64,000 nucleotides of DNA from assembly GCA_001770655.1 (NCBI GenBank), contig MERQ01000020.1:4272-68271 (forward strand), written 5' to 3'. Origin of the DNA: Betaproteobacteria bacterium RIFCSPLOWO2_12_FULL_68_20 (GTDB lineage Bacteria > Pseudomonadota > Gammaproteobacteria > Burkholderiales > SG8-39). The notes beneath the pieces were generated by a model, which made no database searches, had not been told where the DNA came from, and saw nothing but the letters and a program-made list of their open reading frames with translations. Shown here piece by piece: positions 29,743 to 32,356 of the stretch; within the stretch, counting starts at the first letter, position 1; each line of letters begins with the position of its first letter. Position numbers and translations under genes: made by a program.

Positions 29743-30450
29743 GTGAGCGCTACCCCGAACGCCGATCCCGCCGAGCTGGAGAAGTTCGACCGGCTGGCGC
29801 ACCGCTGGTGGGACCCGCACGGCGATTTCCGGCCGCTGCACGAGATCAACCCGCTGCGCCTGGAATGGATCGAGCGCCACGCCGCTCTCGGAGGAAGGGA
29901 AGTGCTCGACGTCGGCTGCGGCGGCGGCATCCTTGCCGAGGCGATGGCGAGGCGCGGCGCGCGGGTCACCGGAATCGACCTCGCCGAGGAAACGCTCAGG
30001 GTCGCGCAACTGCACCTGCACGAAAGCCGGCTCGCGGTCCGCTACGAGCGCGCCGACGTGGAGGAATTCGCCGCGCTGCACGCCGGCTCGTTCGACTTCG
30101 TCACCTGCATGGAGCTGCTCGAGCACGTGCCGCAGCCCGCCGGCATGGTGGCCGCCTGCGCGCGCCTCGCGAGACCGGGCGGGAAGGTATTCTTCTCCAC
30201 CATCAATCGCAACCCGAAGTCGTATCTCCTCGCCGTGATCGGCGCCGAGTACGTCCTGAAGCTTCTGCCGAAGGGCACCCACGACTACACGCGCTTCATC
30301 AAGCCTTCGGAGCTCGCCCGCTGGTGCCGCGCGAGCGGCCTGTTGCCGACAGAAATGATCGGCATGACCTACAACGCCCTCTCCAGGCGCTACCGCCTCG
30401 GCGCGGACTGCGACGTCAACTACCTCCTGTGCTGCGTGCGTGAAGACTAG
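29743..30450 (+). CDS. ubiG: Ubiquinone biosynthesis O-methyltransferase
   Basis: WWDPHG..PLHEINP, LDVGCGGG, MELLEHVP and GTHDY. Confidence 0.95.
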   Translation: MSATPNADPAELEKFDRLAHRWWDPHGDFRPLHEINPLRLEWIERHAALGGREVLDVGCGGGILAEAMARRGARVTGIDLAEETLRVAQLHLHESRLAVRYERADVEEFAALHAGSFDFVTCMELLEHVPQPAGMVAACARLARPGGKVFFSTINRNPKSYLLAVIGAEYVLKLLPKGTHDYTRFIKPSELARWCRASGLLPTEMIGMTYNALSRRYRLGADCDVNYLLCCVRED

Positions 30451-31087
30451 GGCGGTGCTGTTCGATTTCGACGGCACCCTGGCGGATACGGCGCCGGACC
30501 TGGGCGCGGCGGTCAACCGCCTGCGACGCGAGCGCGGCCTGGCCGAGCTTTCGATCGGGGAAATCCGCCCGTATGCCTCGAGCGGAGCGCGCGGCATGCT
30601 GAACGTGGGACTCGGCCTCGCGCCCGGGCACGACGACTACGAGCGCATGCGCGACGCGTTCCTCGAGCTCTACGCCGAGCGCGTGTGCGTCGACACGCGG
30701 CTCTTCCCCGGCATCCCCGAGCTGATCCGCGAGATCGAGTCGCGCGGCCTTCCCTGGGGCATCGTCACCAACAAGGCGATGCGCTTCACCGCGCGCCTGG
30801 TCGAGGCGCTCGGAATTCAGCCCGCCTGCGTGGTGGGCGGCGACTCGACGCCGCACATCAAGCCGCACCCAGCGCCGCTGCTGCATGCGAGCGAGCTGCT
30901 CGGCCTGCCGCCCGGGCATTGCTGCTACGTCGGCGACGATCTGCGCGACGTGCAGGCGGCGCGCTCGGCCGGCATGATGGCCGTGGCGGTCGAGTACGGC
31001 TACAGCGCGGGAAACGACGGCGGCCCGCGGTCGTGGAACGCCGATGCCGTCATCTCGCAGCCGCTCGACTTGATCGCCCGGCTCTAG
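30440..31087 (+). CDS. gph: HAD-family phosphoglycolate phosphatase
   Basis: FDFDGTLADT, VTNK, KPHP and YVGDDLRD; follows ubiG. Confidence 0.85.
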   Translation: MKTRAVLFDFDGTLADTAPDLGAAVNRLRRERGLAELSIGEIRPYASSGARGMLNVGLGLAPGHDDYERMRDAFLELYAERVCVDTRLFPGIPELIREIESRGLPWGIVTNKAMRFTARLVEALGIQPACVVGGDSTPHIKPHPAPLLHASELLGLPPGHCCYVGDDLRDVQAARSAGMMAVAVEYGYSAGNDGGPRSWNADAVISQPLDLIARL

Positions 31088-31220
31088 TCCCCATATGAGA
31101 TAATGAACGCGATTTCGCAGCGAAACGGGGGCGACCTGGTTTCGACGCGGGTCACGAAGCAGCGCAGGGCATGCCGAGGACCAGATCACCTCGCAAATCC
31201 AGTCTGGAAACACTACAAAC

Positions 31221-31253
31221 GCCAACGACGAGCGTTTCGCTCTAGCGGCCTAA
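31221..31253 (+). other. tmRNA proteolysis tag reading frame (A)ANDERFALAA
   Basis: GCC AAC GAC GAG CGT TTC GCT CTA GCG GCC TAA. Confidence 0.9.
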
Positions 31254-31479
31254 TACCCGCTGGACGCTGCACTAGCTTGCTGATGGGCTAGGCCTTCGAA
31301 AGAAGGTGCAGCGTCATTCACATCAGCCCCTCTTCCCGGCTTGGCCGCTTGGCCGGGAGGATCCGTCGAAGCGGCTGGCCGAGCGTCAGCCTGCCGGCCG
31401 GCGGGCGCAAGGCGAGACCCAAACGACCTGGCTAAGCATGTAGTCCTGACTGTGTAGGGCTTGCGGACGCGGGTTCGAT

Positions 31480-31744
31480 CAGCATGGTCGCCTCTGCCCG
31501 AGAGGGCAGAGTGACAACGGGGCTCACATCGGCGAACCCTGTGCTGCCGAAAAGCAGCGTGGCAACGCCGAGGGGTAGGAAGAGGGCCAACCTCAGGCCT
31601 GCCCTGTAGAGACTCATAGAACCGCTGGGGGAAACCTGAGCGGCCACTAGGACCCGGCCGGTGCAAGGCCGGGTAACACGCCCCGCATCCTGGCGACAGG
31701 ATGAAGGCATAGTCCAGCCCGCCCCGAAAGGGGTGGAACAGCTG
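31480..31744 (+). mobile_element. Group I self-splicing intron (265 nt, no internal ORF) in the tmRNA T-loop
   Basis: P1 has a U31479-G31487 wobble at the 5' splice site and the intron ends in G31744. Other elements: P2 CTCTGCCC-GAGA-GGGCAGAG; P3 CGGGGC/GCCCCG; P4-P5 region TCGGCGAACCC...GGCAACGCCGAG; P7 GAGACT/AGTCC; J8/7 AAGGCAT; P8 and P9 GNRA hairpins; P9.0 AGC/GCT. Confidence 0.92.
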
Positions 31745-31766
31745 TCCCGCCGCCTCCACCAAATCC

Positions 31767-31800
31767 ACGGCTGCCCGCTTAGGGCAGCCGTCTTCTTTTC
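31767..31800 (+). terminator. ssrA terminator
   Basis: ACGGCTGCCC-GCTTA-GGGCAGCCGT followed by CTTCTTTTC. Confidence 0.8.
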
Positions 31801-31833
31801 CGGCGGGTGGACGTTAGTCCTCTCTCATACGCC

Positions 31834-32280
31834 ATGAGCCGTCCTCGCCTCGTCCACCGTTTGCAGTCCGATTGCGCCGCCTATCTTGCCGGACTGATCG
31901 ACGGCGAGGGAACCGTAACCCTGACGCGATTGCATCGGTACGGAAATCGACGGCTTGTCGTATCCATCAGCAACTGCGAACTCGCGATTCTCGAGCACGT
32001 CAGGAACGGCATCGGCGCTGGAAAGATAACGTCAAAGAAGACGTACCGCGAGCACCACGCGAGAAGCTTTACGTATCAGATTTCGAGCCGCCAGGCGCTC
32101 CAGCTTCTCGTTCAGGTCGTCGGTTTCATGAAATCGTACAAGGCCGAGCGGGCCCGGCTGGCGCTCCTTGAATATCTGCGAGTCACCCCGAGAAACGGCC
32201 ACTATCGGCCCGAGGTGGCGGTCGCTCGACGCAATTTCGAGGCGAGACTGCTCGCAATCGTTCCGCGACTTGCAAGCTGA
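31834..32280 (+). CDS. Free-standing single-motif LAGLIDADG homing endonuclease
   Basis: AAYLAGLIDGEGTVTL is a canonical LAGLIDADG helix, followed by basic beta-strand segments (RRLVVSISN, GKITSKKTY, SFTYQISS). 148 aa from ATG 31834; GTG at 31807 is an alternative start. Confidence 0.88.
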   Translation: MSRPRLVHRLQSDCAAYLAGLIDGEGTVTLTRLHRYGNRRLVVSISNCELAILEHVRNGIGAGKITSKKTYREHHARSFTYQISSRQALQLLVQVVGFMKSYKAERARLALLEYLRVTPRNGHYRPEVAVARRNFEARLLAIVPRLAS

Positions 32281-32356
32281 ACGCCGTGGTTCGCCGGCCC
32301 GACTCCCTCCGCCAATCGGGTCTCCGGATAGAATCCGCGCTTTTCCTGGGACTCTC

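Follow-up and report, generated by a model that had tools for sequence, protein, structure and literature searches.

A 64,000-nt stretch of DNA from Betaproteobacteria bacterium RIFCSPLOWO2_12_FULL_68_20 (GCA_001770655.1; contig MERQ01000020.1, positions 4,272-68,271), referred to below as the window, carries a transfer-messenger RNA (tmRNA) gene, ssrA, that is split in its T-arm by a group I intron lacking an open reading frame (ORF), and just beyond the gene lies a free-standing homing endonuclease gene (HEG) of the single-motif LAGLIDADG type. Do the intron and the HEG belong together and, if so, what travels with them and how would it spread? The original prediction, made from the letters of the window, paired the two as a linked module. 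Comparison with about 150 other genomes upheld the association and corrected its extent, given that the unit also holds the second exon, the terminator and, in fresher copies, a displaced ssrA 3′ end. We consider it likely that the window carries a composite selfish element in the 3′ end of ssrA, made up of the intron, an element-borne exon 2 and terminator, the HEG and a remnant of the native 3′ end. The features of the locus are listed here.

31127-31761, plus strand: whole ssrA gene, betaproteobacterial type, split by the intron.
31127..31479, plus strand: ssrA exon 1, with the 5′ acceptor strand, tag frame, pseudoknots and the 5′ T-arm half ending ...GCGGGTTCGAT (from Rfam RF00023 and the sequence).
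31480..31744, plus strand: ORF-less group I intron of 265 nt at T-loop position 7 (from covariation in 44 homologues).
31745..31761, plus strand: ssrA exon 2, TCCCGCCGCCTCCACCA, with the last T-loop base, the 3′ T-stem strand, the 3′ acceptor strand and CCA (from the sequence).
31767..31800, plus strand: ssrA intrinsic terminator between ssrA and the HEG, a 10-bp hairpin (31767-31791) and a T run.
31834..32280, plus strand: free-standing single-motif LAGLIDADG HEG of the I-CreI type, an intact ORF of 148 aa (from profile, fold and homologues).
32281..32315, plus strand: decayed remnant of the native ssrA 3′ end, ACGCCGTGGTTCG..CCCGACTCCCTCCGCCA, probable, and marginal when taken alone.
32325..32345, plus strand: second terminator-like hairpin with a T run, 10 nt past the putative remnant CCA.

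The 5′ end of ssrA lies at 31127 (GGGGGCGA.../GGGGGCGACCUGGUUUCGAC), the tag reading frame is ANDERFALAA* and the CCA occupies 31759-31761. Rfam RF00023 matched 31135-31481 at 145.8 bits and stopped after GCGGGTTCGAT, leaving the 3′ half of the T-arm and the acceptor strand uncovered, and ARAGORN run on the window left the split tmRNA gene undetected. Joining the exons restores GCGGG-TTCGATT-CCCGC together with a 7-bp acceptor stem containing a G3.U pair; the canonical intron-less ssrA 3′ end reads ...GCTTGCGGACGCGGGTTCGATTCCCGCCGCCTCCACCA. The insert separates loop base 6 from loop base 7. Intron-form tmRNA genes are known to be interrupted at four subsites of the T-loop, and this one corresponds to position 7, the main known tmRNA intron site (PMC11915505).

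The intron proved as devoid of coding capacity as had been predicted, the longest plus-strand ORF starting within it being 41 aa. Rfam Intron_gpI (RF00028) reached 19.2 bits on it (E = 0.034), under the 50-bit gathering threshold, and Rfam's seed for group I introns contains no bacterial ones (10.1101/2020.01.27.920355). We turned to comparison, extracting 65 distinct homologous inserts from other genomes and aligning 43 of them with the window's own (n = 44). Compensatory double changes occur at 36 of the 58 pairs in the consensus fold, which includes P1, hairpins with many pair types and a T-stem that closes across the intron with covariation of its own. The U at position -1 pairs with a G in P1 (CGAT/GTCG, the U.G pair being invariant in all 44 sequences), the last intron base is a G, and conservation extends to GTAGAGACTCATAG and GATGAAGGCATAGTCC, motifs of the P3-P9 core. 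Removal of the intron regenerates an exact T-stem and acceptor, and the two T-stem strands, one on either side of the intron, covary; we infer from the sequences that self-splicing keeps the tmRNA functional. Small introns with an Azoarcus-like core mostly self-splice.

The HEG begins with an ATG at 31834, ends with a TGA at 32278-32280 and starts 72 nt past the ssrA CCA, beyond the terminator hairpin, in agreement with the distance of about 70 nt given in the original prediction. Its motif, YLAGLIDGEG, spans residues 17-26, of which D23, G24, E25 and G26 are invariant in 24 homologues. Pfam LAGLIDADG_1 and LAGLIDADG_3 scored just below threshold on the product (20.9 versus 22.5 bits and 21.2 versus 23.1 bits, respectively), and a profile of the family searched against the PDB found I-MsoI at 1e-7. 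The AlphaFold2 model (pLDDT 90.4) has the element order H-E-E-H-E-E-H-H-H, and the top 35 Foldseek matches are I-CreI, I-CvuI and I-MsoI, aligned over the full length of the model with TM scores of 0.68-0.76 (0.72 for I-CreI); the bI3 maturase is also among the sequence and fold matches. Because the Rfam and Pfam scores lie under the curated thresholds, the class assignments of the intron and the HEG rest on covariation, profile and fold. The product shows the hallmarks of the single-motif LAGLIDADG class, namely a motif that ends in a conserved acidic, metal-binding residue and an alpha-beta-beta-alpha-beta-beta-alpha core of about 150 residues with one domain per chain, and this single-domain enzyme, as modelled, is presumably a homodimer.

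More than 800 homologues of about 144 aa share 58-72% identity with the window protein, and 1703 sequences were found at E ≤ 1e-3 in a 50%-clustered library. The ratio of nonsynonymous to synonymous substitution rates (dN/dS), which the original prediction had named as a check, was 0.04-0.23 in 12 pairs, including unsaturated pairs with dS of 0.11-0.40. The HEG is thus under purifying selection, and 82 of 83 sampled copies are intact, in a sample biased to good matches. A chance ORF was ruled out by the more than 800 homologues at E < 1e-3 and by dN/dS ≤ 0.23. The GC content at third codon positions of the window HEG is 0.69 versus 0.90-0.92 in the flanking genes, which suggests a foreign origin.

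To what is this family attached? One genome per species was scanned for close relatives, giving 80 loci coding close HEG homologues in Beta- and Gammaproteobacteria, Nitrospirota and a few other labels, and a second scan of the family used as queries members only 30-45% identical to the window protein. The position of ssrA at these loci was read by T-arm and exon pattern searches, with Rfam for selected loci (L and G numbers below denote loci and genomes). At nearly all of the 80 close-homologue loci the HEG lies 35-200 nt past the ssrA CCA. The 149 family members surveyed go down to about 30% identity; 107 of them are downstream of ssrA and in its orientation, 9 converge with it and at least 4 are intron-internal, with the intron-internal members in one clade. 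Rfam placed the HEG between exon 1 and exon 2, inside the intron, in L217, L226, L235, L233, L239, L243 and L262. The HEG of L061 is clearly convergent with an intron-bearing ssrA, that of L059 points towards a T-arm-like 3′ end lying on the other strand, and in L016 no ssrA was found despite sufficient flank. The family is dedicated to ssrA, its link to this gene being near-exclusive. A scan of a viral collection returned generic LAGLIDADG genes with 25-38% identity, none of them adjoining a tmRNA gene in the loci checked.

Two further kinds of placement were observed. In L267, a family member (plus strand, 1011-1388) lies within the intervening segment of a circularly permuted tmRNA gene (minus strand, 825-1460; RF04321, 94 bits), on the strand opposite to it. 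Distant LAGLIDADG relatives (about 25-38% identity) lie between tRNA genes in L131 (2372-3014), L125 (327-1588) and L123 (53-883), one of them flanked by two tRNA-Ser genes within a phage array of 26 tRNA genes and another flanked likewise on a short contig. Judging from these sequences, a wider LAGLIDADG clade may be specialised on tRNA-like DNA.

The co-occurrence of HEG homologues with intron-bearing ssrA, on which the original prediction depended, was borne out. The upstream ssrA was readable for 70 close homologues; in 66 it bears an intron (T-arm halves 250-455 nt apart) and in 4 it is uninterrupted, so that the homologues are not equally frequent beside intron-less genes. Most of the distant family members likewise flank intron-bearing ssrA. 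Conversely, when 401 genomes of the host order were searched with the T-arm, intron and exon 2, the intron was found in only 7, the others matching the exon part alone. Downstream of it lies an intact HEG in five of these seven genomes and a 22-aa relic in another, while G239 has no HEG. The association (66:4 versus 7:394) has a Fisher p of about 1e-67, a value that ignores phylogeny. An ORF-less intron with an adjacent free-standing HEG, recurrently linked, is one of the marks of a collaborative homing module, and it is present here.

The distribution is patchy. Genomes G200 and G034, of the same genera as the paired genomes G011 and G001, have a canonical ssrA with neither intron nor HEG; the downstream DNA is unrelated in both comparisons (G200 versus G011, G034 versus G001), and the exact limits of the cassette are unreadable from synteny. 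In G001 the intron is accompanied by a truncated HEG whose motif is ruined and which is fused to another ORF. This decayed copy, from a related genus (L003, 1357-1700 on the minus strand), reads YAAGSIGGDG at the motif, matches the window protein over residues 3-67 only and is fused to what remains of a gene for a small membrane protein, while its intron is still intact.

Furthermore, on the HEG tree the intron types fall into clusters (10 changes versus a shuffled mean of 26), as would be expected if intron and HEG were inherited as one block. Pairwise identities of tmRNA body, intron and HEG gave Spearman coefficients of 0.2-0.4, uninformative through saturation. The cross-phylum outlier L045 was considered as evidence of transfer and set aside as not clean, since intron cores are constrained. 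On the HEG tree, the clade of L025, L036, L038 and L052 and that of Nitrospira match variants of the adjacent ssrA T-stem (GGGGG/CCCCC and AGGGG/CCCCT), a match that could reflect enzyme-target co-evolution or merely host phylogeny.

What, then, is the inserted unit? At least 12 relatives have the ssrA 3′ end a second time, uninterrupted and 3-65 nt past the HEG stop (L002/L006, L005, L007, L008, L009, L050, L057, L062, L072, L075, L081 and L084). Scored by local alignment to the canonical ssrA 3′ end, these remnants reach 30-58, all above the background 99th percentile of 26; the longest extends to CGCGGGTTCGATTCCCGCCGCCTCCACCA, and at their 5′ ends they begin anywhere from position 4 to position 18 of the canonical sequence. 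L084 also has the terminator twice, its exact second copy standing behind the remnant. The first terminator is kept in the cassettes of related genomes, and homologous hairpins with compensatory changes occur in L002 and L003. It follows that a block consisting of the T-arm with its intron, exon 2, the terminator and the HEG was inserted in ssrA just 5′ of the native T-arm, with decay as the fate of the native 3′ end. With remnants past its stop codon, the HEG is in effect within ssrA rather than beside it. In the window, the position of the putative remnant matches that of the clear remnants in the nearest relatives, L005-L009, and the hairpin at 32325..32345 is possibly the original ssrA terminator. 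A longer intron enclosing the HEG, with its 3′ splice site past the HEG, was ruled out, as the remnants hold whole T-arms and show no G-T junction.

The original prediction took the intron-less T-arm, a pseudo-palindrome with the intron near its centre, as a possible target of the enzyme. A T-arm is necessarily an inverted repeat; by hand count 6 of 11 positions are symmetric around the loop centre, and the intron lies 3 nt 3′ of that centre. Evidence on the target comes from the uninterrupted genes. Four intact HEGs stand beside an uninterrupted ssrA, and all four T-arms differ from the canonical GCGGG-TTCGATT-CCCGC; a fifth differing T-arm was found upstream of a displaced intron relic. These T-arms are given below.

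L005, uninterrupted ssrA: GCGAG-TTCGATT-CTCGC.
L053, uninterrupted ssrA: GCGAG-TTCAACT-CTCGC.
L067, uninterrupted ssrA: GCGGG-TTCGAAA-CCCGC.
L084, uninterrupted ssrA: GCCGG-TTCGAGA-CCGGC.
L269, uninterrupted ssrA upstream of a displaced intron relic, then the HEG: GGCGG-TTCGATT-CCGCC.

The first four represent at least three independent intron losses on the HEG tree, nested among intron-bearing sisters. Where stems are recoded the changes are compensatory, so that the tmRNA structure is kept and the DNA sequence is altered. The displaced copy in L005 and L084 retains the native T-arm and thus provides an internal control; elsewhere sister lineages keep the canonical form. Genome G239 (L089) likewise has a GCGAG/CTCGC T-stem upstream of a displaced intron relic. 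L089 (1300-2400, minus strand) and L269 (1860-2520) show a layered replacement of the ssrA 3′ end, in which a recoded uninterrupted ssrA with its own terminator is followed by a relic running from mid-intron through exon 2 and a second terminator. No stem is recoded in 23 HEG-less ssrA genes of the host order (5 of 7 versus 0 of 23, Fisher p = 1.5e-4, in mixed taxa). The sole HEG found beside a canonical uninterrupted T-arm, that of L264 (1462-1866), has lost about 24 residues in frame between LLQRL and TPRNGKY. Together, the recoded T-arms and the broken HEG of L264 point to the T-arm as the target. Being encoded in introns, the intron-internal relatives would be expected to home to the insertion site of their own intron, presumably T-loop position 7.

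From these comparisons we infer a homing cycle, including its cleavage site, the basis of immunity and activity of the window copy at present. A homodimeric enzyme would bind and cleave intron-less ssrA at a site of about 20 bp that starts slightly 5′ of the T-stem and reaches into the T-loop and 3′ stem. Repair would then copy in the occupied allele, ssrA itself providing the left homology arm and the duplicated ssrA 3′ end the right one, so that the intron, exon 2, terminator and HEG would be acquired jointly. The resident functional copy would be immune since the intron splits the site, and in the rare lineages that lost the intron, immunity would come from compensatory recoding of the T-arm. 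The displaced copy would be immune because the upstream part of the site is absent from it. Insertion restores the complete upstream context to the functional copy, and for this reason that copy needs to be intron-split or recoded.

Several observations weigh against this reading. First, the score of the window remnant is reached in 0.8% of 45-nt windows of the 64 kb and in 1.3% of shuffles (p ~0.01). Second, the remnant of L009, with an intact HEG alongside, has a full canonical T-arm and acceptor (29/29 nt); intact remnants such as this one mean that the model requires recognition reaching 5′ of the T-stem, which we assume. Third, direct repeats of the ssrA 3′ end are also a signature of integrase islands. 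Fourth, the strong purifying selection and the clade-wide vertical persistence of the HEG (e.g., in Nitrospira) exceed what a purely selfish, fixed HEG would show, and hint at frequent re-invasion or an added function. Finally, the cassette of the window holds an intact but somewhat divergent HEG copy. It is the longest terminal branch in its clade on the HEG tree and departs from the E and N carried by at least 90% of relatives, having G37 and C48 in their place; with two non-consensus residues and a long branch, this copy may be losing activity. A search 5′ of the window HEG for a sigma-70-like promoter found none, and no clear ribosome-binding site was seen there; with no recognised promoter, expression would need read-through of the ssrA terminator or a promoter of an unrecognised kind.

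A host-beneficial guard of the ssrA attachment site would account for the persistence of the HEG. On this explanation, the intron splits the attB of phages and islands that integrate at ssrA, and the endonuclease cuts the uninterrupted ssrA 3′ copy in their attP. A P4-type integrase was found directly downstream in 0 of 77 HEG loci versus 4 of 18 HEG-less ssrA loci (Fisher p = 0.001), the HEG adjoins ssrA almost everywhere, so that nothing has integrated between them, and both the purifying selection and the clade-wide retention would follow. However, the integrase comparison is confounded by taxonomy, query and controls coming from one order, and the betaproteobacterial loci alone give p ~0.08 by hand estimate. 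Moreover, the patchy distribution (7/401) and the decayed copies in L003, L090, L026 and L264 fit a selfish cycle better. We regard a guard as unlikely.

Near-obligate co-occurrence with the intron, dN/dS of 0.04-0.23, retention across clades such as Nitrospira and the presence of the bI3 maturase among the matches could also be read as the marks of a trans-acting maturase, that is, a LAGLIDADG protein kept by the host for folding or splicing of the tmRNA intron, like I-AniI or the bI3 maturase, with endonuclease activity secondary or lost. Against this, intact HEGs occur beside an intron-less ssrA in at least three independent lineages, and the intron-less L067 and L084 are still under purifying selection (pN 0.105, pS 0.78). 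D23 and E25 are invariant across the family, whereas pure maturases often lack the acidic motif residues. The tendency of small introns with an Azoarcus-like core to splice unaided counts in the same direction, and the remnants and recoded T-arms, which are signatures left at the DNA level, would remain unexplained. A maturase is quite improbable in our judgement, although a protein with both maturase and endonuclease roles is conceivable.

The duplicated 3′ ends raise the question of whether the cassette is instead a relic or miniature ssrA island, with the repeats as attL and attR and the HEG as surviving cargo, moved in trans by ssrA-specific integrases. A functional 3′ end, cargo and a partial ssrA 3′ duplicate do follow the layout of ssrA islands, and P4-type integrases lie directly after ssrA in G200 and in 4 of 18 control loci. 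On the other hand, tblastn with a P4-type integrase query detected an integrase within 1.5 kb in none of 77 HEG loci, the sole cargo across several phyla is the same HEG of about 0.45 kb, and the variable 5′ limits of the remnants (positions 4-18) define no single att core. Islands would explain neither the intron nor the recoded T-arms, and family members are also found inside introns. Past the cassette in the window there is just a molybdopterin oxidoreductase-like ORF. We give this explanation very little credence. The integrases themselves were observed after a canonical intron-less ssrA at about 2822-4139 in L116 (G200) and in L097, L101, L103 and L110.

Least probable of all is a HEG target elsewhere than the T-arm, for example in the DNA past ssrA, with the intron link as shared old residence: the HEG does lie outside the gene and beyond its terminator, but the DNA past ssrA is unconserved between hosts and yet family members at 50-70% identity occur in several phyla, the recombination joint as marked by the remnants falls within the ssrA 3′ end, and recoded T-arms and intron-internal relatives indicate the T-loop region.

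The composite homing element has parallels in several known systems. Collaborative (trans) homing has been described in phages, with the free-standing F-CphI and an ORF-less psbA intron in cyanophage S-PM2 (Zeng, Bonocora & Shub 2009; reviewed in PMC3984707) and in T3/T7-like phages (Bonocora & Shub 2009; reviewed in PMC3984707). As in those phages, the intron is expected to immunise its allele, and intron and HEG are co-inherited. The enzyme of the T3/T7-like phages is reportedly named I-TslI. In contrast to the phage cases, the element lies in a bacterial chromosome and in a non-coding RNA gene instead of a phage protein gene, its presumed cutting enzyme is of the I-CreI-type LAGLIDADG class, an exon 2 and a terminator travel with it while a displaced gene 3′ end stays behind, and it is widespread over several phyla, with the recoded T-arm as an alternative route to immunity.

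A precedent for the displaced 3′ end is reportedly ORF360 at atp6 in Allomyces macrogynus mitochondria (Paquin, Laforest & Lang, 1994), a mobile endonuclease ORF said to bring a replacement gene 3′ end. In both cases a HEG is inserted with a foreign gene 3′ end, and the resident 3′ end persists downstream as a pseudo-copy, at ssrA clearly so in the 12 related loci; here, however, the gene encodes an RNA, the imported 3′ end is protected by an intron and the host is bacterial. T4 SegF and other seg/mob genes (PMC3984707) home without an intron. They are similar in that genomes lacking the HEG are cut by a free-standing enzyme in a conserved neighbouring gene, with co-conversion of the flanks, as would be the case here, and differ in that our co-converted block includes an intron and the elements here are chromosomal. 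The enzyme itself resembles I-CreI, I-MsoI and I-CvuI, homodimers of rRNA introns, in fold, size, single motif and acidic residues. It differs from them in its identity of only about 18%, in the location of its gene outside the intron and in its presumed target, a tRNA-like T-arm instead of rDNA.

As for tmRNA, a catalogue of the intron form lists 883 unique sequences from 21 phyla (PMC11915505; the form also in Williams 2002) and shares with our locus the group I intron at T-loop position 7. The flanks were trimmed in that catalogue, which reports LAGLIDADG genes only where they are intron-internal, in 36 of 883 sequences (4.1%), a share remarked upon as low (PMC11915505); flanking HEGs, displaced 3′ ends and recoded T-arms are unmentioned there. 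The literature that we searched on LAGLIDADG genes at tmRNA and on collaborative homing describes no flanking HEG at ssrA, in keeping with the view of the original prediction that such a system had not been reported for a chromosomal bacterial tmRNA locus. The tmRNA intron form and phage collaborative homing are thus already known, and the flanking HEG cassette at ssrA is apparently new, real and widespread.

The genes upstream of ssrA (29743-31087) appear unrelated to the cassette. By translation only, they are a ubiG-like methyltransferase gene and a phosphoglycolate phosphatase-like HAD hydrolase gene, which overlap by 11 nt.

If this interpretation is true, an engine lying just outside the gene, where catalogues trim, explains why only 4% of tmRNA introns, spread over 21 phyla, hold a HEG (PMC11915505). 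Collaborative homing, known so far from a few phages, would here be a widespread chromosomal system. The HEG family also occurs in three layouts, free-standing beside recoded genes or beside an ORF-less intron and within an intron, as predicted by a proposed pathway for the birth of mobile introns. By carrying a spare gene end as its own homology arm, the element would become independent of the variable DNA past ssrA. For annotators, a gene and a pseudo 3′ end are to be expected past an intron-form ssrA. Lastly, the HEG family would constitute a large natural set of small homodimeric meganucleases, held under purifying selection and apparently aimed at a near-universal 20-bp bacterial sequence.

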